From an uncultured delta proteobacterium (GTDB lineage: Bacteria; Myxococcota_A; Polyangia; Palsa-1104): 64,000 nt of DNA. The position numbers and the translations under genes are program-made. The stretch lies in the NCBI GenBank assembly GCA_963785725.1, contig CAWAWS010000017.1, forward strand, positions 1 through 64,000, written 5' to 3'. Positions 29,096 to 44,769 of the stretch are shown in pieces. The stretch's first letter is position 1. Each line of letters opens with the position of its first letter. Under the pieces are notes generated by a model that saw only the letters and a list, made by a program, of their open reading frames with translations, did no database searches and had not been told where the DNA came from.

Positions 29096-30946
29096 TTAAT
29101 GATGTGAGAAGAAGTTGGCGACGCCGGTCGTCAGCGCCGGCACGTACGTGATGAAGAGGACGCCGAGCGCCATGATCACGAGGAACGGCAGCGCCTGCTT
29201 GTACAGATAAGGGAGCGGCTTGCCGAAGCGCGACGCCGACAAGAACAGGTTCAACCCCATCGGCGGAAACAAAAACCCGAGCTCCAAGTTGGCCAAGAAC
29301 ACGACGCCCAAGTGCACCGGCTCGACGTTGAAGATCGCGCCCAGCGGCGCCACCAGCGGCGCCAGCACGATGATGGCCGCGTAGATCTCGAACACGCTGC
29401 CGAGCACGAGCAGGATGCCGTTGAGCGCGAGCAAGAACGTCCATTGCGAGTGAATGTGCGCCTGCACCCAATCGACGAGCGCGTCGGGAATCTGCGCGTC
29501 GACGAGGTAGTTCGTCAGCCCATACGCCACGCCCATGAGGATGACGACGGCGCCGACGAGCGTCGCCGACTGCACGAGCACGACCGGCATCTCCTTGCGC
29601 GGGTCGACGTCGCGAAAGACGATGATCTCGATGAGCAGCGCGTACAAGGCGCCGACCGCCGCCGCTTCGACGATCGTGCCGAAGCCGGAGGCGATGAACG
29701 ACAGCACGACGAGCGGCAGGCCGAGATCGAACTTGGCCGCCCACAAAGCCCGGCCGGCCTCTTTGGCGACGAAGCTCTGCCGCGGCGCCTTGGCGGCGAT
29801 GCCGGTGCGAATGGCGTACAGCGCGACGACGATGATGAGGACGATGCCGGGCAAGAGGCCGCCCAAGTACAAGCTCTTGGCCGACACGCCCGCCTGTCCG
29901 CCGCCGCCGAGCACGGCGCTGTACAAGATCACCGGCAGCGACGGCGGAAACAGGAGGCCGAGTGAGCCGGCGGCGGTCACGAGGCCGATCGAGAAGCCCT
30001 CGGGATATTTGTCGTTGATGAGCGCCGGATACATGAGGCCGCCGAGCGCCAAGATGGTCACGCCCGAGCCGCCCGTCAGCGTCGTGAACAGCGCGCAGAC
30101 GCTGATGACCATGAGCGCCACGCCGCCGGGCAGCCAGCCGAACAGGCTCTTGTAGGCGCGCACGAGCCGCTGCGACGCGCCGCCCGCCGCCAAGACGTAG
30201 CCTGCGACCGTGAGCAGCGGAATCGCCGGCAAGGTCGAGTTCTCCATCAGCTGCAGCGTCGCCTGCGGCATCGAGGCGATGGGCGTGTCGTGCATGAAGA
30301 ACAGCGTCATGGCGATGGCGGCCATCGCCACGAAGACCGGCGCGCCGAGCGCGAACGCGGCCACGACGAGGATGATGCACGGCCAGCTCAGCCACAGCGG
30401 ATGCGCGCCGAACGCGACGAACAGCGCGACCGTGACGACGCACGCCAGCAGCGACGACGCGCGCCCGCGCCAGCCGCCCGGCGTATGCCAGATGAAGCGC
30501 CCGCAGATGAGCACGAACGCCACCGGCATGATGATCGACGCCCACCACGCCGGCACGCCGAAGGGCAGCTCATCGGTCGACACGCTGTTGGCGCGCACCG
30601 TGAGGAAGCTGGCGTAGGCCAACATCAGCGTCGTCGCCGACGAGATGGCGCCGCTCAAGTAGCCGGCGACCCGGCGCAGCGGATGATGCTCGGGCAGAAA
30701 CACCGTCGTCGCCAGCCCGAGGTGCTTGCCGTTGGCCGTGGCCACGACGGCGCCGAAGAAGCCGAGCCACACGCCGATGCGCTGCGTATACGGCCCCAAC
30801 CCCTTACGCAGGAAAATATCGAGGACCGGCACCAGCACCATCGCCACCGTCAGGACGACGATGATGCCGCGCATGAGCGCGTTGGTCGTGGCCGCCGAGC
30901 CGTGCGAGTCGGTGGGGCTGCTTTGCCCTGCTTCGAGATCGATCAT
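29096..30946 (-). CDS. TRAP transporter fused small and large permease (DctQM)
   Basis: Four N-terminal TMs, then DctM motifs AIPLLTVAGYVL, AGSLGLLFPPSLP, PPMGLNLF. Confidence 0.9.
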   Translation of the reverse strand: MIDLEAGQSSPTDSHGSAATTNALMRGIIVVLTVAMVLVPVLDIFLRKGLGPYTQRIGVWLGFFGAVVATANGKHLGLATTVFLPEHHPLRRVAGYLSGAISSATTLMLAYASFLTVRANSVSTDELPFGVPAWWASIIMPVAFVLICGRFIWHTPGGWRGRASSLLACVVTVALFVAFGAHPLWLSWPCIILVVAAFALGAPVFVAMAAIAMTLFFMHDTPIASMPQATLQLMENSTLPAIPLLTVAGYVLAAGGASQRLVRAYKSLFGWLPGGVALMVISVCALFTTLTGGSGVTILALGGLMYPALINDKYPEGFSIGLVTAAGSLGLLFPPSLPVILYSAVLGGGGQAGVSAKSLYLGGLLPGIVLIIVVALYAIRTGIAAKAPRQSFVAKEAGRALWAAKFDLGLPLVVLSFIASGFGTIVEAAAVGALYALLIEIIVFRDVDPRKEMPVVLVQSATLVGAVVILMGVAYGLTNYLVDAQIPDALVDWVQAHIHSQWTFLLALNGILLVLGSVFEIYAAIIVLAPLVAPLGAIFNVEPVHLGVVFLANLELGFLFPPMGLNLFLSASRFGKPLPYLYKQALPFLVIMALGVLFITYVPALTTGVANFFSHH

Positions 30947-30970: not shown

Positions 30971-30998
30971 TTGACGGAGCGCCTGGCTCTCTTAGGAT
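30971..30998 (+). promoter_or_regulatory. Putative sigma70 promoter for the tatT-dctP operon
   Basis: TTGACG (30971-30976), 16-nt spacer, TAGGAT (30993-30998), 11 nt before ATG 31010. Confidence 0.55.
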
Positions 30999-31009
30999 GT
31001 GCACCTACC

Positions 31010-31915
31010 ATGCGACGTCTCACTTTAGCATGTGTCCTCGTCACGATGGTGACCGGCACGAGTGGCTGCCTGAAGCAGCTCGCCCTCGGCAGCGTCGCCA
31101 ACGCGCTGTCGGCGTCCGGCAACGGCTTCGGCCGCGACGACGATCCCGAGCTCATCGGCGACACCTTGCCCGTCATCATCAAGCTCATGGAGCAGCTGCA
31201 CGACAGCTTGCCCAAGCATCAAGAGCTGGCGGTGGCGCTGACGCGGGCCACGACGTCGTACGGCGTGGCGTTCTTGGCCGAAGACGCCGATCGCGTCGAG
31301 GAGAAGGACGTGCAGGCGGCGCACACAATTCGCCTGCGTGCCCGCCACATGTTGCTGCGCGCGCGCAAGTACGGCCTCGACGCGCTCGAAGTCTCCGTCC
31401 CCGGCTTGGGCGCGGCGATGCTGGCCAACGACCGCGACAAGCGCGCGGCGCTGCTCGCCAAGACCAAGAAGTCCGACGTGGCCGCGCTCTACTGGACGGC
31501 CGCCGCCTGGGGCTCGGCCATCGCGAACGGCAAAGAGGACCTCGAGCTCGTCGGTCAGCTGCCGCAGGTCAACGAGCTGGCCGCGCGCGCGCTCGCCTTG
31601 AACGAGAGCTTCGAAGCGGGCGCCATTCACGAGCTCTACATCAGCCTGGCGGCGGCGCAGAACGATCGCAAAGGCGCCAAGGAGCACTTCGAACGCGCTG
31701 TGCAACTTTCGCACGACCAGAAGCTGTCGCCTCTGGTGACCTACGCCGAGGCCATTTGTGTCGACACGCAAGACAAGAAGGAGTTTCAGCGCCTCCTGAA
31801 CAAGGTGTTAGCGTTCGACGTGAATTCCGATCCCGACCTGCGACTGGTCAACATCTTGTCGCAGCGCCGCGCGCGCTGGCTGATGTCGCGGATCGCTGAC
31901 CTGTTTGCCGAGTGA
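31010..31915 (+). CDS. TRAP transporter TatT (T component) lipoprotein (301 aa)
   Basis: Lipobox TSGC; DDDPELIGDTLP, LYWTAAAWG, AKEHFERAV, EFQRLLNKVLA, QRRARWL; lies next to dctP and dctQM. Confidence 0.85.
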   Translation: MRRLTLACVLVTMVTGTSGCLKQLALGSVANALSASGNGFGRDDDPELIGDTLPVIIKLMEQLHDSLPKHQELAVALTRATTSYGVAFLAEDADRVEEKDVQAAHTIRLRARHMLLRARKYGLDALEVSVPGLGAAMLANDRDKRAALLAKTKKSDVAALYWTAAAWGSAIANGKEDLELVGQLPQVNELAARALALNESFEAGAIHELYISLAAAQNDRKGAKEHFERAVQLSHDQKLSPLVTYAEAICVDTQDKKEFQRLLNKVLAFDVNSDPDLRLVNILSQRRARWLMSRIADLFAE

Positions 31916-31925
31916 GGGGCCCGAA

Positions 31926-32930
31926 ATGACGAAGCTGACGAAGCCGAGAACGTTGCTCGCAGTCGCAATGCTAATGCTGCTGCCGTCGCTGGCGCAGGCG
32001 GACGTGGTCATCAAGCTGGGGACGCTGGCGCCCAACGGCTCGCCTTGGCACACGATCCTCAAGGAGATGGGGCAGAAGTGGGAGCAGGCGTCGGGCGGTA
32101 AGGTCAAGCTGCGCATCTACCCCGGCGGCGTCCTCGGCAACGAAGGCGACATGGTCAAGAAGATCCGCATCGGCCAGCTGCAGGCGGCGGCGCTGACGAC
32201 GGTCGGCCTGCACGACATCTCGGCCGACGCGCAGGCCGTCGACGTGCCGATGATGATCGACTCCTGGAAGACGCTCGACTTCGTCATGGAGCGGATGGGC
32301 CCGAAGCTCGAGAAGACGATGGAGGGCAAAGGCTACGTCGTGCTCGGCTGGAGCGAGGTCGGCTTCGTGCGCTTCTTCTCGACCAAGAAGTACGCGACGC
32401 TGGCGGAGATGCAGTCGGCCAAGATGTTCTGCTGGGAAGGCGATCCGGCGTCGGCCGAGGCCTGGCGCGCGGGCGGCTTCCATCCGGTCATCGTCTCGTC
32501 GACCGACATCGTGCCGTCGCTGCAGACCGGACTCATCGACACGGTGGCGTTGGCGCCGCTGTACGCCTATTCGTCGCGCATCTTCGAGAAGGCCAAGTAC
32601 ATGCTCGACGTGCCGTGGGCGGTGTTGACGGGGGCGACGGTCGTGAAGAAGGAAGATTGGGACAAAGTGCCGGCCGATCTGCAGCCCAAGCTCATCGAGA
32701 TCACGCGCGAGTATTCGAAGAAGGTGGGCATGGAAGTGCGGCGCATGGACACCGAGGCGCTCGAGAACATGGTCAAGCAGGGCCTCGTGCAGGTGAAGAC
32801 GACGGACTTGGCGGCGTTCGATCGCGCGGCGCAGGCGTCGTACAAGGTCATTCGCGGCAAGGTCGTGCCGGCCGACGCGTTCGACGAAGTGAAGAAGCTC
32901 GTCGAAGAAGCGCACGCGGCCAAGAAGTAG
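31926..32930 (+). CDS. dctP: TRAP substrate-binding protein DctP (TatP type, 334 aa)
   Basis: Signal peptide; IKLGTLAPNGSPW, IYPGGVLGNEGDMVKKIRIGQL, LQTGLID. Confidence 0.9.
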   Translation: MTKLTKPRTLLAVAMLMLLPSLAQADVVIKLGTLAPNGSPWHTILKEMGQKWEQASGGKVKLRIYPGGVLGNEGDMVKKIRIGQLQAAALTTVGLHDISADAQAVDVPMMIDSWKTLDFVMERMGPKLEKTMEGKGYVVLGWSEVGFVRFFSTKKYATLAEMQSAKMFCWEGDPASAEAWRAGGFHPVIVSSTDIVPSLQTGLIDTVALAPLYAYSSRIFEKAKYMLDVPWAVLTGATVVKKEDWDKVPADLQPKLIEITREYSKKVGMEVRRMDTEALENMVKQGLVQVKTTDLAAFDRAAQASYKVIRGKVVPADAFDEVKKLVEEAHAAKK

Positions 32931-35012: not shown

Positions 35013-35129
35013 TCGCGCCGCGGCCGGCGCGGGCGAGGCGACGCTGCCGACGGCGGCCTGCGCATCGGTCGGGCTCGAGTGACCGCGACACTTGGTCCGC
35101 GTCCGACGCGCGCGTAGGCTTGGCCGCGC

Positions 35130-36101
35130 ATGGCGTTACGACCTTTCCCGCTCGACGGTGCGCTCCTCCTCTTCGATCGCGACAGCGGCACCAACGTGCG
35201 GCTCGACGGCGACGAGACGGCCGCCCTGCGCCTCGTCGCGCCGCGCGCCGTGCAGTTCGCCATCACCAACCGCTGCAACTTGGCTTGCTCGTTCTGCTCG
35301 CGCGACGTCGCCGCCGACAGCGCCTGGACGGCCGAGAGCGCCTTCGTCGTGCTCGCCGACCTCGCCCGCGCCGGCGTGCTCGAGGTCGCCTTCGGCGGCG
35401 GCGAGCCGTTTGCCTTCCGCGGCTTCGAGCAGCTCGTCGCGCGCCTGTACGACGAGACGCCGCTGGCCGTGCACGCCACGACCAACGGCCTGCTCCTCGA
35501 TCACGCGCGCCTTTCGCGCATCGCCGGCAAGCTGGGCGAGCTTCGCCTCTCGCTCTACGACGACAACGACTGGCGCCGCACGATCGCGCTGCTCGTCGAC
35601 GAGAAGGTGCGCTTCGGTGTCAACGTGCTGCTCTTGCCCGAACGACTGCCGCGCTTGGAGGCGCTGGTGCTCGAGCTGTTCGATCGCGGCTGTCGCGATG
35701 TCTTGCTGCTGTCCTACAACGGTCCCGATCGCGCGCAGCACCTGTCGGCCGCCGAAGCCGACGCGCTGGCGACGCGCGTGCGGCTCCTCCATCGCGCCCT
35801 CGGCCGGCGCGGTCGCCTCAGCCTCGACGTGTGCTGGGGCGACCGCATGGAGCGCGTGCCGCGTCACTTCGATCGCGACGACTGCGGCGCCGGCCGCGAC
35901 TTCATCGTGATCACCAGCGACAAGCGCATGATGCCGTGCAGCTTCCACCACGCGTCATTCCCGATTCGCGACGCCGCCGACGTCATGGCCCACTGGAACG
36001 GCCGCCGCGTCGAGCTGGCCGCGCCGTCGACGATCGCCGGCTGCGCGCGTCGCGCCGACTACGGCTTGACCGGGCTGGCCGTCGCCAAAGGAGCGTCATG
36101 A
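35130..36101 (+). CDS. Radical SAM enzyme with C-terminal Cys motif (Twitch/SPASM-like)
   Basis: CNLACSFC (CxxxCxxC), GGGEP, TTNG; C-terminal DVCWG, CGAG, PCSF, GCAR. Confidence 0.9.
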   Translation: MALRPFPLDGALLLFDRDSGTNVRLDGDETAALRLVAPRAVQFAITNRCNLACSFCSRDVAADSAWTAESAFVVLADLARAGVLEVAFGGGEPFAFRGFEQLVARLYDETPLAVHATTNGLLLDHARLSRIAGKLGELRLSLYDDNDWRRTIALLVDEKVRFGVNVLLLPERLPRLEALVLELFDRGCRDVLLLSYNGPDRAQHLSAAEADALATRVRLLHRALGRRGRLSLDVCWGDRMERVPRHFDRDDCGAGRDFIVITSDKRMMPCSFHHASFPIRDAADVMAHWNGRRVELAAPSTIAGCARRADYGLTGLAVAKGAS

Positions 36102-37048
36102 AGGTCCGCATCTGGAACGCTTACGCGTCCAACAACAGCGGCAGCTACACCATCGTCGGCCAGCTGCCGTCGCAAGCGGTTGCCGAAGCCGTCGCCGCCG
36201 AGCTGACGACGCTCATCGCCGCGCACGGCAAGTGGCTCGGCGACCCCGAGTCGCAGTCGACCGAATCGCCGCTGGCCGCGTTCTGCCGCGACAACGCGCT
36301 CTTTTGGGAGGATGGCCTCGGCTCCGGCGAGGACTGGTCCGATTCCGACGACCCGCCGCGCGTCGTCGCCGCCGGGCGCCAAGTCATCGTGCATCACCAT
36401 TATACGGTCTCGTTGCCGCCGACGTTCGGCGAGCTCTTCTACAGGCGCGGCGGTCGCGTGCAGACCGAGGAGAACCACGCGCACGCGCCCATCGTCGTCA
36501 CGGCCGAGTTCCGGTGGGGCTGGCGCGAAGCGGACAAAGCGCGACAGCAGCTGGAGCTGCCGCGGCTCATCGCGGCGTTGACCGCGGCCGACGGCCCGCT
36601 ATCGCAGCAGTTCACGGACGGCTGGCCGGCCGCTTGGCGCACCGCCGGCACGGACTGGCAAGACGCACCCTTTACGGTCGGCGCCGTCTTCAAAGATCTC
36701 GTCGCCAGTGTCGGCGCGGTGCGTGACATCGCGACGGCCTGCGGTGCGCAGCTGATGCTGCGGCTGCACGAAGCCGACGACGAAACGAGCGATCCGCTGG
36801 CCAGGCTGCGGCCGAGCACGCCGGCCGTGGCGCGCTTCGAGCTCATCCTCACGGCGGCGTCCGACCCCGATGCGGCGGCCGACTGCATCGCCGAGCGCTT
36901 GCACCTGGATTGGCAGGTCGCGCACGATCTAGTCGCCGCGCTGCCGCGAACGATCGCGCGCGGCCTGGCGGACGCGGATGCCGAGTCGACCGCGCAGGCG
37001 CTGCGCGCCGTCGGCGCCACCGTCCACGTCGCGCGCCGCGACGGCTGA
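36098..37048 (+). CDS. Uncharacterised protein: N-terminal MKVRIWNAYASNNSGSY motif, C-terminal L7/L12-CTD-like domain (316 aa)
   Basis: AAGGAG RBS and ATGA overlap with the radical SAM stop. The last ~68 aa (FELILTAA...AHDLVAALPRTIARGLADADAESTAQALRAVGATVHV) follow the L7/L12 C-terminal pattern. Confidence 0.75.
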   Translation: MKVRIWNAYASNNSGSYTIVGQLPSQAVAEAVAAELTTLIAAHGKWLGDPESQSTESPLAAFCRDNALFWEDGLGSGEDWSDSDDPPRVVAAGRQVIVHHHYTVSLPPTFGELFYRRGGRVQTEENHAHAPIVVTAEFRWGWREADKARQQLELPRLIAALTAADGPLSQQFTDGWPAAWRTAGTDWQDAPFTVGAVFKDLVASVGAVRDIATACGAQLMLRLHEADDETSDPLARLRPSTPAVARFELILTAASDPDAAADCIAERLHLDWQVAHDLVAALPRTIARGLADADAESTAQALRAVGATVHVARRDG

Positions 37049-40278: not shown

Positions 40279-43200
40279 TCACGCCCGCAGGTCGGGCTCG
40301 TCGAGCCCCGCTTTACGCGCAGCGGCAACGATGTCGCGCGCGGGCGGCGCGCCCAAGTAGCGGGTTCGCCAGCCTTCGTCGCGCAGGCGCCGCGCCTTGC
40401 GCACGACCTCGGCGTGGGCGCGCCGCAGCGCCTCGTGCGCGACCGACGTGGCGCCGGCGGCTTTGGCGGCGCGGGCGTGGATGAACAGCACCTCTTCGGG
40501 CGTGTCGACGTCGCGGCCGGAGTCGAACAGCGTGACCGCCTGCGTCGAACGCGACAGCGCCTCTTGATGCCGGCCGGCGCGACCGAGCGCCAACGCCTCG
40601 GCGCACAAGCCGTAGACCTCGCCGTTGGCGATCTCGGCCTCGCGCGCCAAGCGCGTCGCCGACTGCGCCAACTCGAGCGCCGCTTCGGGCGCGCCGCCGC
40701 GCTCCAGCCGGCAGAACGCCAAGTAGACGAGCGCGCGAATCTCCTGATAGCGATTGCGCGTCTCCGACGCCAACTCGAGGCCGCGCTCGAGCTGCTCGTC
40801 GGCCTCGCCGACCTTGCCTTCGCGCAAGGAGACCTGCGCCAACGAGATGAGCGCGTCGGCGAGACCGGGCTGATCGGCGAGCGCGGTGTGGATCTCGATC
40901 GCCTTCTCGAGATAGCGGCGCGCACGCTCGAAGTCGCCGAGCTCGGCGTAGGTCTGCCCGATGTTGCCGAGCTTGACGCCGATTCCCGCGCGATCGCCGA
41001 GCTCCTGCGCCAGCCGCAGCGAGCGCTTGTAGTGGCCGAGCGCCTCTTCATGCTCGCCCAGCCCGACGAAGACCCACCCCATGTTATTCAACGTCGCCGC
41101 TTCATAACGACGCGCGCTCAGCCGGCGATAGATGACGAGCGCCTCGGCATACGACGACACCGACTCGCGCAGGTGGCCGGTGTGCACGTGCACGTTGCCG
41201 ACCGCGTTCAAGGCCTGCGCGCGCGCCAGCAGCTGATCGCGTGCCGAATTCGTCGCGCTCTCCGACGGCGTGCCGAGGACGTGCAGCGCCGAGAGCGCCA
41301 CCTCCAAGGCCTCGATGTTCTTGCCGACGTTCATGAGCAGCGTGGCCAAGAGGCGCAGCGCTTCGGACTCGCACAGCACGTCTTCGGCTTGGCGCGCCAG
41401 GGCCAGCGCGCGGTCGAGCTCGCGACGCGCGGCGGCGTGGCGGCCGATGTCGAGGTAGAGCAGGCCGAGGCGCGCGAACGCCTGCGACTCGCGGCGGCGG
41501 CCCTCTTTGCCCGGCGTCGCGGCGGCGTGCTTGCGCATGTAGTGCACTTCGCGCAACTGCGCCGGCCGCTTGCCCCAGCCGCGCAAGATCTGCTCGCGCT
41601 CGCCGTGCGCGTCGTAGCGCTCGTCGTGCGCGTCGGCGGGCAACAGCTCGAGCGCGCGCGACAAGAGGGTGAAGGCGTCGGCGTTGCTGGCGTTGTCGCG
41701 CGCGTAGGCGCCGGCCGAGACGAGCGCGCGGCCGGCACCGGTGCGATCGCCCGCCGCCAGCAAGTGTTCGCCCATGCGCGCGTCGTCGCCGCCGGCGCGA
41801 TAAGCGGCCGAGCGGCGCAGGCGATCGGCGGCGACCGAATGCAAGAGCGCGCGCGTGTCGGCCGGCAAGCCCTCGTAGGCGACCTCTTTGGTGATGAGGT
41901 TGCGGAAGCTGTAGGCGCCGGGACCGCGGCCGAAGACGTCGCTGCGCGCCGACGCCGGCGCGATGAGCCCGCGTGCCGCCAGCCGGACGAGCGCGCGGGT
42001 CAGCCGCTCGGGTGGACCGCCGCCGGTCAACGCTTGCAGATCCTCGACGCGGAAGATGCGGCCGAGGAGCGCGGCGCGGCGAATGGTGTCGCGCTCGTCG
42101 TCGGGCAGCCGATCGAGCCGCGCGGCCACGACCGCCTCCACCGTCGTCGGAATGAGCAAGAGCTCGTCGCGCTTGACCCAACGCAACAGGCCATCGACGT
42201 TCGGCTGCAAGGTGCCGCGCTCGACCAGCGAATCGACCATCTCGTTGATGTAGAACGGGTTGCCGCCGGCGCGATCGAGGATCTGCGTGCCCAGGGCGTG
42301 CGCGTCGGCGGGATCGGCGAAGCGGCTGCGCACCAGCTCCTCGCGCTCGCGCAGCCCCAGCTCGCCGACCAGGATCGTCATCACCTTGTCGGTCTGCGAC
42401 AGCTGATCGGTGCGCTCGTCGTGCCGCGCGGTCGCGATGCCGAGCAGCGGCCGCTCGATCGGATCGCGCACCAGCTGCACCAAGATCTCGAACGACTGCG
42501 AGTCCGCTTGGTGCATGTCCTCGACGACGACGACGAGCACGCGCTCTTCCGCCAGCCGCGTCTGCAGCTTGCGCAAGGCCGCGTACAGCCGATGGCGCCG
42601 CTCTTGCGGATCGAGCTCCTCGGCGCCCGACGCGCGCAGACCGAGCAGCGCGCCCAACGCCTCCGACACTTGCCGCGCGTCGCGCTCTTCGGCCGGCGTC
42701 GTGGCCGGGAACAGCCGCTGCACCGTCGTGTCGATGCGCTTCTTGACCTCGCGCGGCTCGGCCTCCTCGGTCAGCTCGAAGAGGTCGCGCGTCAGATCGG
42801 CGACGAGCGCGTAAGGCGTATCGCGCAGCGACGGCCGGCCGACGGCGCGCAAGATGAGGTGCGTCGTGCGATCGAGCTTGTTGCGGAAGGCGTCGACGAT
42901 GGTGGCCTTGCCGACGCCACCGTCGCCGAGGAGCAGCACGTAGCGAGCGCGGCGCTGCTCGACGACCGCGCGGTGCGCGTCGCCGAGCGCCGCCAGCTCC
43001 AAGTCGCGCCCGAGGACGCGGCGCACGCCGGCGTGATCGGCGAGCCGCTCGGCGCGCGGTCGCGGTCCGCGCAGGCGGTACACTTTGGCGCGTCCCGGTC
43101 CGGCCGGCTCGAGGTCGTTGTCGCGTCCGGCGCCGGTGTCGAGATCGGGCGGCAGCGTGATCGCGTCCAGCTGCTCGAAGTTCCAATCGGCGCGCGCGCC

Positions 43201-44769
43201 GCGAAAGCAGCCGCCCGACACGAGGATCTCGCCGCCCATGGCCTCGTTCGCCAGCCGCTGCGCCACCTGCGCCGTTTGGCCGAGCAGCTCGTACTGAAAG
43301 CGCGCCGCGTCCGAGCCTTCGGCGCCGCGCGTGACCAGCGCCGTGCCGCGCGACAGGCCCAGCGCCAGCGTCAACGGCGGCGTCAGATCGCGCGAGATGC
43401 CGTCGAGCGCGTCGATGAGCGCGCGCGCCAGCTCGACCGCGCGCGCCGCGTCGTCCTCGGTGCCGACCGGCAGGCCGATGACGTAGGTGAAGCCGCGATC
43501 GTCGAGCCGATCGGGATGCGCCTGATGCTTGTAGGCGACGTGCTCGGTCACGCGGAGAAAGTCGAGCAAGGCTTCGCGGGCGCGCGCCTCGCCCATGTTG
43601 CGCCGCAAGGTCGGCAGGCCCGCGAGCACGCCTTCGACGACGAGCACCGGCTTGCGCTCGGCCGGCTGCATGAGCTGGTCGCGTGCGCCGGCGCTGGGCC
43701 CGGTCTTGCCGATCGTCGGTCGCGCCTGCCGCGTCGGCGTCGGCGTCGCCACGGCCACGCGCTGGGCGGCCGGCGAATCGGGCGCCGTCATGAGGCCGTG
43801 CGGCAGCGCCGGCCCGTTGCGCTCGGCCTCGGGGATGACGAGCGCCAAGAACGACGCCATCGTCCCCGACTCGTAGATCTGCCCATCCTTCGACGACAGC
43901 GCGAAGAAGAATTGACCGAGCGCCCGATGCAGATCGCGCGCCGTCTGATAGCGATCGTCCGGCTTACGCTGTAAGCACTTGAGGATGATCGCCTCCAGCT
44001 CGCTCGGGATCGCCGGATCGACCTCGCTCGGCTTCGGCACCTGCGCGTTCTTGATGGCGTTGATCGCCTGCCGGCCCTTCAAGTTGCCGAAGAGGCTGCG
44101 CGCGCAGCACAGCTCCCACAGGACGATCCCCGTCGAGAAGATGTCGGCGCGCGGATCGACGGGCAGCCCTTGCGCCTGCTCCGGCGACATATAGGCGAAC
44201 TTGCCTTTGACGACGCCTTCTTCCTCTTTGACGTGGCGAGCGCGGGCGATGCCGAAGTCGACGATCTTGACCATCCCGTCCCACGAGACGATCACGTTCT
44301 GCGGCGAGACGTCGCGATGGACGATGCCGAAGGGCTCGCCGTATTCGTCGGTCTTGCGGTGCGCGTAGTCGAGCCCTTTGGCGACCTGCTGCGCGAGATA
44401 GGCGCACAAACCGAACGGAATACGCGCGTTGGCCTCGACGGCGGCGTTGAGGACGCGCAAGAGATCGACGCCCTCGACGTGCTCCATGGCCAAGAAATAG
44501 GTCGGTCCGATTTGGCCATAACCGAACGTCTGCACGATGTTCGGATGGTTCAAATTGACGGCGACCTTGGCCTCGTCCTCGAACATCTGGCGGAACTGCG
44601 GCGTCTCCGCCAGCGACGGATGGATCTTCTTGATGACGAGGATCTTGGCCAGGCCCTGCGCCAACGGCTCGCGGGCCAGGAAGAGCTCGGCCATGCCGCC
44701 GGCGCCTAGGCGACGAATCAGCTGATATTTTCCGAAGGTGTCCACGGTCGCGGTTAACGTAATTGGCAA
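40279..44769 (-). CDS. Ser/Thr kinase - degenerate class III cyclase-like domain - AAA/STAND NTPase - TPR protein
   Basis: GAGGMA, HRDVSPQN, DFG, GKFAYMSPE; GTEDDAARAV...LGQTAQVAQRL; GRDLEL, Walker A GDGGVGKAT, Walker B VVVVED, GGNPFY, ARLDRL; C-terminal TPRs. Start may be GTG near 44743. Confidence 0.9.
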   Translation of the reverse strand: MPITLTATVDTFGKYQLIRRLGAGGMAELFLAREPLAQGLAKILVIKKIHPSLAETPQFRQMFEDEAKVAVNLNHPNIVQTFGYGQIGPTYFLAMEHVEGVDLLRVLNAAVEANARIPFGLCAYLAQQVAKGLDYAHRKTDEYGEPFGIVHRDVSPQNVIVSWDGMVKIVDFGIARARHVKEEEGVVKGKFAYMSPEQAQGLPVDPRADIFSTGIVLWELCCARSLFGNLKGRQAINAIKNAQVPKPSEVDPAIPSELEAIILKCLQRKPDDRYQTARDLHRALGQFFFALSSKDGQIYESGTMASFLALVIPEAERNGPALPHGLMTAPDSPAAQRVAVATPTPTRQARPTIGKTGPSAGARDQLMQPAERKPVLVVEGVLAGLPTLRRNMGEARAREALLDFLRVTEHVAYKHQAHPDRLDDRGFTYVIGLPVGTEDDAARAVELARALIDALDGISRDLTPPLTLALGLSRGTALVTRGAEGSDAARFQYELLGQTAQVAQRLANEAMGGEILVSGGCFRGARADWNFEQLDAITLPPDLDTGAGRDNDLEPAGPGRAKVYRLRGPRPRAERLADHAGVRRVLGRDLELAALGDAHRAVVEQRRARYVLLLGDGGVGKATIVDAFRNKLDRTTHLILRAVGRPSLRDTPYALVADLTRDLFELTEEAEPREVKKRIDTTVQRLFPATTPAEERDARQVSEALGALLGLRASGAEELDPQERRHRLYAALRKLQTRLAEERVLVVVVEDMHQADSQSFEILVQLVRDPIERPLLGIATARHDERTDQLSQTDKVMTILVGELGLREREELVRSRFADPADAHALGTQILDRAGGNPFYINEMVDSLVERGTLQPNVDGLLRWVKRDELLLIPTTVEAVVAARLDRLPDDERDTIRRAALLGRIFRVEDLQALTGGGPPERLTRALVRLAARGLIAPASARSDVFGRGPGAYSFRNLITKEVAYEGLPADTRALLHSVAADRLRRSAAYRAGGDDARMGEHLLAAGDRTGAGRALVSAGAYARDNASNADAFTLLSRALELLPADAHDERYDAHGEREQILRGWGKRPAQLREVHYMRKHAAATPGKEGRRRESQAFARLGLLYLDIGRHAAARRELDRALALARQAEDVLCESEALRLLATLLMNVGKNIEALEVALSALHVLGTPSESATNSARDQLLARAQALNAVGNVHVHTGHLRESVSSYAEALVIYRRLSARRYEAATLNNMGWVFVGLGEHEEALGHYKRSLRLAQELGDRAGIGVKLGNIGQTYAELGDFERARRYLEKAIEIHTALADQPGLADALISLAQVSLREGKVGEADEQLERGLELASETRNRYQEIRALVYLAFCRLERGGAPEAALELAQSATRLAREAEIANGEVYGLCAEALALGRAGRHQEALSRSTQAVTLFDSGRDVDTPEEVLFIHARAAKAAGATSVAHEALRRAHAEVVRKARRLRDEGWRTRYLGAPPARDIVAAARKAGLDEPDLRA

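Follow-up and report, generated by a model that had tools for sequence, protein, structure and literature searches.

What does a radical S-adenosylmethionine (SAM) enzyme do for the protein encoded immediately behind it? The question is raised by two overlapping genes of an uncultured delta proteobacterium (Myxococcota_A, Polyangia, Palsa-1104; assembly GCA_963785725.1), which lie in a window of 64,000 nucleotides (nt), the whole stretch of DNA analysed (contig CAWAWS010000017.1, positions 1 to 64,000). Gene 1 encodes the enzyme, and gene 2 encodes a partner protein whose N-terminus, MKVRIWNAYASNNSGSYTIVG, carries a serine- and asparagine-rich tag. The two genes form an obligate pair, and sequence comparison identifies both as distant homologues of the Avap1/Avap2-type pair. 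With evenly balanced confidence, we propose that gene 1 is dedicated to gene 2 and modifies its aromatic-x-S-N-N-S-G tag.

An obligate gene pair with an invariant tag

Scanning genome contigs with the tag pattern gave 56 loci, spread over Myxococcota, Melainabacteria and Planctomycetota; as they were selected by the tag itself, they test the coupling of the genes and not the conservation of the tag. (A scan of genome contigs with the single protein found nothing; the alignment-based scan gave the loci.) All 56 carry a relative of gene 1 at 51% identity or more. The genes are adjacent in 49 loci (26 with a 4-nt overlap), fused in frame in 5, and separated by one gene in 2, namely by a second copy of gene 2 in one case and by an unrelated open reading frame (ORF) in the other. 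On metagenome contigs, the enzyme is found in 60 of the 61 loci with at least 250 nt of upstream sequence, some of the matches being partial. Gene order is swapped in four loci. In the reverse direction the enzyme occurs in 10 of 401 sampled genomes, a patchy spread, and 9 of the 10 carry the tag: four as a separate tagged gene and five fused behind the enzyme, while in the last, stop codons interrupt the enzyme. A search of representatives added seven fusion proteins. The expected co-occurrence of gene 2 with this radical SAM clade is borne out by these counts.

In the window, both ORFs lie where the preliminary description had placed them, with the sequence ATGA at 36098-36101 forming the overlap. 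Both look coding, with third-position guanine plus cytosine (GC) fractions of 0.91 for gene 1 and 0.89 for gene 2, and the pair is single-copy in this genome. A 775-codon reading of gene 2 was dropped, since its long in-frame upstream extension has a third-position GC of 0.51, which is not coding-like.

The conservation of the tag was read from an alignment of 81 gene-2 relatives, in which N12, N13, S14, G15 and G21 are invariant; the SNNSGS-type motif noticed earlier is thus conserved. Of the 223 proteins that have the N-N/S-S pattern, 222 carry F, Y, W or H at position 9; 29 of 252 proteins are without the pattern and left out of the count. The tag is kept intact in fusions, under swapped gene order and in branches whose bodies have diverged. 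The model of gene 2 alone has a predicted local distance difference test (pLDDT) score of 92.4, with residues 1-11 disordered. An invariant and yet disordered tag is what one expects of a segment that binds something else. A search of 50%-identity representatives returned 175 gene-2 relatives at E ≤ 0.001, and no gene-2 relative was found in the viral contigs searched.

Several loci show unusual architectures. In five fusions of about 700 residues (L176, L178, L179, L180 and L181), the enzyme is joined to a partner body that has diverged and looks duplicated; their tag reads S-G-N-N-S-G or similar, a His-x-His motif is kept in four, and L181 looks frameshifted beyond the tag. Archangium lansingense (L009:5016-6972) has two tandem gene-2 copies behind one enzyme; the W-P and Y-T motifs and one His are gone from the first copy. 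Locus L055, whose contig is labelled Klebsiella pneumoniae, has a fused member that groups with the Myxococcota fusions, and the bin label may be wrong.

Table 1. Features of the gene pair and their positions in the window
Feature	Position	Strand	Remarks
Gene 1	35130..36101	+	323 aa, radical SAM enzyme; four C-terminal cysteines, likely Twitch-type auxiliary cluster (predicted)
Gene 2	36098..37048	+	316 aa, tagged partner protein
-10-like hexamer TAGGCT	35115..35120	+	9 nt before the start codon; possible leaderless promoter
N-terminal three-strand sheet of gene 1, residues 3-39	35136..35246	+	likely cut-down peptide-recognition element
CxxxCxxC motif, C49/C53/C56	35274..35297	+	present in 95% of the 56 loci
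Auxiliary-cluster cysteines C235, C252, C270, C305	35832..36044	+	56 of 56 genome loci
N-terminal tag of gene 2: leader strand 2-8, aromatic 9, S11-N12-N13-S14-G15	36098..36160	+	proposed substrate
Domain 1 of gene 2, residues 1-131	36098..36490	+	distant DUF6375/Avap2 homologue, ferredoxin-like order of elements
H127-x-H129 closing domain 1	36476-36484	+	conserved
Domain 2 of gene 2, about residues 132-240	36491..36817	+	second ferredoxin-like domain, from the secondary structure of the model
L7/L12 C-terminal-like domain, residues 244-316	36827..37045	+	optional; degenerate in this copy

Relation to Avap1/Avap2 and to phage proteins

The preliminary description knew of no described function for such a pair, and had missed its closest described relatives. 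Avap1 (a radical SAM enzyme) and Avap2 (DUF6375, PF19902) are accessory proteins of the anti-phage sensor KpAvs2, to which Avap2 binds also without Avap1 (PMC11564622). In Klebsiella, Avap2 protects against phage SECphi18 without Avap1, and Avap1 is required against T2 (PMC11564622). In its available part, the same report detects no viperin-type nucleotides, predicts no nucleoside triphosphate (NTP) pocket in Avap1, leaves the roles of both proteins open, and proposes neither that Avap1 acts on Avap2 nor the reverse (PMC11564622). Our literature searches for DUF6375, Avap1/Avap2 and PF19902 gave nothing beyond this report, and none was found since 2025 on Avs2 accessory proteins.

The homology of both genes to the Avap1/Avap2-type pair is concluded from the sequence identity and shared N-terminal sheet of gene 1 and from the profile match of domain 1 in gene 2. 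Gene 1 is 33% identical over 228 aa to an Avap1-type enzyme. A profile of its N-terminal sheet matches four of five Avap1-type enzymes (E 7e-6 to 2e-4) and none of the 12 further radical SAM enzymes in this genome. In profile-profile comparison with wider profiles, domain 1 aligns with DUF6375 end to end over 120 of 130 columns (probability 90.3, E 1.5e-6), reversed and 30 shuffled controls reaching at most 1.0; a narrow profile gave a probability of only 29.7. The alignment includes the tag serine and the closing His, and Ser14 is the one tag residue common to DUF6375. Gene 2 by itself scores 13.6 bits against PF19902, under the curated cut-off of 27.5, and its relatives reach DUF6375 at E 0.003-0.045. 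Among plasmids, the two best matches to gene 1 come from operons of the radical SAM-DUF6375 type; in the two operons tested, Avs2 follows as third gene. All these comparisons were made through cyanobacterial, Deinococcus and Vibrio operons, not through the Klebsiella sequences. A glycyl-radical role for G15 was dropped, since the Gly is not kept in DUF6375.

Avap-type operons have the same gene order and 4-nt overlap as this pair. Gene 1 keeps all four auxiliary cysteines, of which Avap1-type enzymes have lost three, and the gene-2 tag S-N-N-S-G corresponds to S-E-H-S in Avap2/DUF6375. Unlike Avap2, gene 2 has a second ferredoxin-like domain, which is absent from DUF6375 proteins, and an optional L7/L12 tail. 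No Avs2 stands beside this branch: tblastn with two Avs2 queries gave no match in 123 loci or in this genome (88% complete), 75 of 122 loci having at least 2 kb of downstream sequence. The pair belongs to an undescribed enzyme-partner family, a variant of the Avap1/Avap2 kind and not a member of an Avap1-Avap2-Avs2 operon.

This relationship invites an explanation in which no tag is modified. The pair might be an Avap-like regulator whose Avs2 neighbour has been lost; the partner would bind a sensor or target encoded elsewhere, and the enzyme would control it through binding only, perhaps in the role of an iron-sulfur or redox sensor. Such a role would fit the homology, the patchy spread and the Avap1-independent binding of Avap2 to KpAvs2 (PMC11564622). 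We consider it improbable nonetheless, because nothing like Avs2 was found in the loci or the genome, the neighbours include no conserved defence genes, and the SAM-binding motifs and all seven cysteines of gene 1 are strictly kept across the 56 genome loci.

A further relationship, to phage proteins with an NSSS-type tag, is suggestive. The sole phage match of gene 1 is Salmonella phage Arash gp146c, which has such a tag fused ahead of its radical SAM domain, and a similar fusion is seen in 14 of 14 viral loci found by tag pattern. Arash gp146c, Microcystis phage Ma-LMM01 gp130 and gp128, and PHROGs 28997 and 16999 have a tag similar to that of gene 2 (F-A-T-N-S-S-S-S-H-S-V-I), which is likewise N-terminal and fused to or near a radical SAM enzyme; the phage enzymes are without the auxiliary cysteines, and the tag domain precedes the enzyme. 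The likeness to NSSS-motif proteins suspected earlier can be seen but is weak: the tag aligns over about 16 columns (P 0.011), the bodies do not align, and a tag-only profile detects the phage proteins no better than chance. In a tree, the Avap1-type, phage and present enzyme groups are each well supported and lie on one side, the branch joining them having a support of 33; the tree thus permits a common origin of the three groups but lends it no support. Searching viral contigs with Arash gp146c gave no relative. A literature search for NSSS-type motifs with radical SAM enzymes found no paper, and no description of these phage proteins turned up in the literature searched. Three genes after the Arash fusion, gp143c (L156:5359-5811) is annotated as an RNA ligase.

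The enzyme and a possible modification of the tag

Gene 1 belongs to the radical SAM superfamily (PF04055, E 6e-10, 39.9 bits against a cut-off of 29.5). The CxxxCxxC motif and the four further cysteines seen earlier (in VCWG, CGAG, PCSF and GCAR) were all found, the loci without a full CxxxCxxC being frameshifted or truncated. The four cysteines likely bind a Twitch-type auxiliary cluster; C252, C270 and C305 are missing from the Avap1-type and phage enzymes. Pfam SPASM gave no match in gene 1, though Twitch/SPASM enzymes head the fold comparison. Gene 1 stays well short of the cut-off of every NCBIfam family, its YhhB match (E 1e-5) lying far under. Identity as a prokaryotic viperin was rejected (NF038283, 36.3 bits against a cut-off of 180), and the PADLOC viperin match covers only the shared core, residues 41-142. 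In PHROGs, PADLOC and NCBIfam, neither protein was named beyond generic radical SAM and L7/L12 matches.

The fold of the enzyme was compared through the model of a fused relative, built with 149 sequences (predicted template modelling score of the fusion 0.57). SkfB and SuiB begin with a leader-binding element. The closest solved folds are the peptide maturases SkfB (Z 24.6, root-mean-square deviation (rmsd) 3.3, 288 residues aligned), SuiB (22.7) and PqqE (21.5), in agreement with the Twitch/SPASM-maturase likeness first proposed, and the SkfB and SuiB alignments begin at model residue 1. Viperin (19.3), BlsE (19.3) and anSME (19.2) score lower. Strands 4-8, 11-15 and 21-26 of the model make up the N-terminal sheet, which is likely a cut-down peptide-recognition element. 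Like this pair with its candidate substrate, the SkfB, SuiB and PqqE systems combine CxxxCxxC, auxiliary cysteines and a co-encoded substrate; identity is 15-19%. Unlike theirs, the candidate substrate here is a folded protein of 240-320 aa, often fused to the enzyme; there is no protease, transporter or other conserved gene, and only three strands precede the barrel.

Two predictions bear on how the proteins might meet. The fusion model turns the leader into a strand of low confidence (328-333, pLDDT 54-59) and leaves the N-N-S loop disordered, at a pLDDT below 50. The complex prediction for gene 1 with gene 2, in which the enzyme was folded without an alignment, scored 0.45 against 0.00 for the best of three controls; a passing score was obtained for 116 of 157 solved pairs and for 2 of 215 mismatched ones, and the passes at 0.60 or less comprise 18 solved pairs and both mismatches. 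The runs share at least 37% of contacts, with a partner pLDDT of at least 76. The complex prediction weakly supports binding between enzyme and partner. Taken together, the maturase-like folds, the leader strand of the fusion model and the complex score lead us to prefer a reading in which the tag docks on the enzyme and undergoes modification by it.

The chemistry that we infer would run as follows. Leader strand 2-8 would dock on the N-terminal three-strand sheet of the enzyme, as leader peptides do on SkfB and SuiB, and the flexible S-N-N-S loop would enter the barrel. There, the tag would lose a hydrogen to the 5'-deoxyadenosyl radical, and an electron would pass to the auxiliary cluster. 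The most probable product would be a cross-link joining aromatic residue 9 to one of the side chains at 12-14, with a mass change of -2 Da; a cyclophane-type cross-link is favoured because position 9 is aromatic only. Conversion of Ser14 to formylglycine or dehydroalanine would be nearly as likely. The modified tag would then lie beside H127-x-H129, forming or tuning a site on the partner, and the interchangeable tails (L7/L12-like, BRCT, beta-propeller or none) would serve only to direct the partner.

Known enzymes offer partial parallels. Radical SAM cyclophane synthases cross-link F, Y, W and H in motifs of 3-5 residues, and the triceptide synthases HtkB, HaaB and ChlB accept in aromatic-X-X the same set of residues that occupies tag position 9 (PMC11499958). 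Y9-A10-S11 of this copy fits that motif, which calls for a beta carbon at the third position. Unlike triceptide systems, however, the family allows Gly at position 11, has no short precursor peptide and shows no family-level match. The other parallel, the radical SAM enzyme anSME/AtsB, finds its target in a folded protein, at an N-terminal serine motif, and converts Ser or Cys to formylglycine; unlike that enzyme and its substrate, the present pair has no (C/S)xPxR motif, no sulfatase fold, and one predicted auxiliary cluster instead of two.

Several points weigh against modification of the tag, or against its chemistry as drawn here. No confident placement of the tag in the active site came from either the fusion model or the complex prediction. 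Gly occupies position 11 in 8 of 222 relatives and in 3 of the 5 distant fusions, so a three-residue cross-link cannot be universal and the target would be at 12-14, not at 11. Since Avap1-type and phage enzymes lack three auxiliary cysteines, one oxidative chemistry may not span the relatives. Avap2 defends against SECphi18 without Avap1, which implies that modification is not needed there (PMC11564622, in its available part). Fusion is also compatible with a two-part enzyme, and the order in which radical SAM folds score leaves the choice of substrate undecided.

H127 is kept in 252 of 270 rows, and H129 likewise. Ser14 should lie near this pair, because the start of strand 1 adjoins the end of strand 4 in a ferredoxin fold, a proximity taken from topology and not read from coordinates. 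Fold searches of gene 2 barely covered domain 1 and gave no specific match for it; domain 2 (130-232) matches many ferredoxin-like folds at Z 6.3-8.6, none of them specific. The ESM Atlas returned no usable match for residues 1-240 of gene 2, and only DUF6375 clusters for a DUF6375 protein. The partner could also cleave itself at Ser14 by an N-to-O shift, yielding an N-terminal nucleophile (Ntn) or a pyruvoyl group, with the radical SAM enzyme acting in a parallel step. Ser14 is indeed the tag residue shared with DUF6375 and stands at the start of the first strand, behind residues that are disordered in the model. This route would leave the strict coupling and the conserved leader unexplained, and neither an Ntn hydrolase nor a pyruvoyl enzyme appears among the listed fold matches, in which domain 1 is barely covered; we regard it as very improbable.

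Genomic setting and meaning of the pair

The RNA-repair gene rtcB lies directly upstream in 13 of 122 loci, 72 of which had at least 1.5 kb of upstream sequence, and RtcA is encoded between or downstream in three of these RNA-repair operons. In a quick tree, 12 of the 13 fall in one clade, which implies about two origins of the link. The loci concerned are L019, L024, L036, L037, L088-L090, L099, L100, L102, L104, L106 and L127, with L070 listed after them; in the Planctomycete locus L036 an HD-domain gene precedes RtcB. The window is not among them, and the RtcB genes of this genome lie on other contigs. Apart from RtcB and RtcA, no conserved third gene or defence island was found beside the pair in a scan that covered 91 of 123 picked neighbours, a few of them swapped in. 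Judged by title and the opening of the abstract, no related paper was found that links RtcB or RNA repair, radical SAM enzymes and L7/L12.

These operons make it conceivable that the two proteins are subunits of one enzyme, in which the tag serves as docking strand and lid and the substrate is a nucleotide, a damaged RNA end or a small molecule. The frequent fusion of enzyme and partner, the viperin and BlsE folds at Z 19.3, and H127-x-H129 as a possible second catalytic site would all suit this arrangement. On the other hand, the RtcB link has few origins and does not extend to this locus, peptide maturases outrank small-molecule enzymes in the fold search, and the Avap study, in its available part, reports neither viperin-type nucleotides nor a predicted NTP pocket (PMC11564622). 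We judge a two-subunit enzyme unlikely, though it deserves serious attention, and retain the modified tag as the preferred reading.

The C-terminal tail of gene 2 follows the L7/L12 pattern related to ClpS, as the preliminary description had recognised: its fold matches L7/L12 at Z 12.8 (rmsd 1.6, 70 residues) and ClpS at Z 10.8. Against the Pfam L7/L12 C-terminal domain it reaches E 1.6e-4, under the cut-off, and the family profile finds the L7/L12 of this genome at E 8e-14 and a solved L7/L12 at E 1e-9. The tail is a true L7/L12 homologue in fold and sequence. The gene-2 profile matches 361 of 401 genomes, almost all of these matches being ribosomal L7/L12, and only four among the matches listed cover the N-terminal domain. 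The tail is present in 44 of 81 aligned relatives and missing in 37. At aligned positions 257-265, which we take to correspond to the factor-binding helix of L7/L12, this copy has no Lys or Arg, while the helix in the genome's own L7/L12 reads KIQVIKAIRE; among the 44 tailed relatives, 13 have Lys at 262 and 19 have Arg at 265. In a distant branch whose tag reads S-C-N-N-S-S (L152:8312-10791; proteins P0243, P0246, P0250 and P0253), the partner ends in BRCT domains, a zinc-ribbon-like stretch or a BNR propeller instead; in the one locus seen, this branch too is coupled to the enzyme.

The earlier idea that this domain targets the product to translation GTPases is not supported, because the tail is optional and degenerate here. 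Even so, one may ask whether the tail is the business end of the protein, a stalk mimic that captures translation GTPases or a ClpS-like adaptor, with the remainder as a regulated carrier. The true homology to L7/L12, the basic helix kept in some relatives and the RtcB neighbours, which point to translation stress, speak for it. We give this little credence, since the tail is missing or replaced in so many relatives and its helix has no basic residue in this copy. A tag modified by the enzyme, with the tail merely aiming the partner, is the reading that we keep.

The patchy spread, the Avap homology, the RtcB operons and the L7/L12 or BRCT tails point to a conflict or damage response as the probable setting, with the target not fixed by them. 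For the conflict or defence module suggested previously, the homology to Avap1/Avap2 is the one point of support; neither Avs2 nor conserved defence neighbours were found for this branch. Six Obscuribacterales-type loci (L002, L007, L008, L011, L014 and L056) have the pair converging on a clpP-clpX-lon operon, probably through shared ancestry of one insertion.

The locus itself has a TonB C-terminal protein gene upstream and a convergent esterase gene downstream; neither is conserved beside relatives, in keeping with the view that the neighbours are functionally unrelated. Of the -10-like element claimed for the pair, the hexamer is present and fits a possible leaderless promoter, while the sigma-70 promoter search gave no match. 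Among 89 related loci, which are not independent of one another, 34 have TANNNT ahead of a candidate start, against 3.8% of random positions. The enrichment is only modest, because 613 of 2713 long ORFs in the same genome (22.6%) also have one. That share, counted 4-10 nt ahead of a candidate start, suggests many leaderless mRNAs in this organism. Elsewhere in the window, three adjacent genes (30997-32930 and 29096-30946) look TRAP transporter-like (lipoprotein, solute-binding protein and fused permease), and 40279-44769 on the minus strand encodes a 1496-aa protein resembling a Ser/Thr kinase joined to a cyclase-like region, an ATPase and TPR repeats, both judged by eye.

What is new here is the homology of both proteins to Avap1/Avap2 in a pair that is self-standing, obligate and often fused, with an invariant tag. 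It is possible, though on the doubtful side, that this pair, Avap1/Avap2 and the phage NSSS proteins make up one widespread undescribed system, in which the enzyme writes a covalent mark or cofactor on a portable N-terminal tag and so switches folded partners on both sides of the phage-bacterium conflict. If so, the mark would tune an NLR-like sensor, RNA repair and ribosome-stalk mimicry, and the branch that keeps the ancestral auxiliary cluster, with its single-chain fusions, would be the simplest route to the chemistry. Should the tag prove unmodified, the pair would still be a radical SAM enzyme of two subunits, as yet uncharacterised, that occurs in Myxococcota, Planctomycetota and Melainabacteria; should it be modified, conflict systems would gain a radical SAM reaction whose substrates are folded proteins, possibly with a new protein-derived cofactor by the His-x-His motif.

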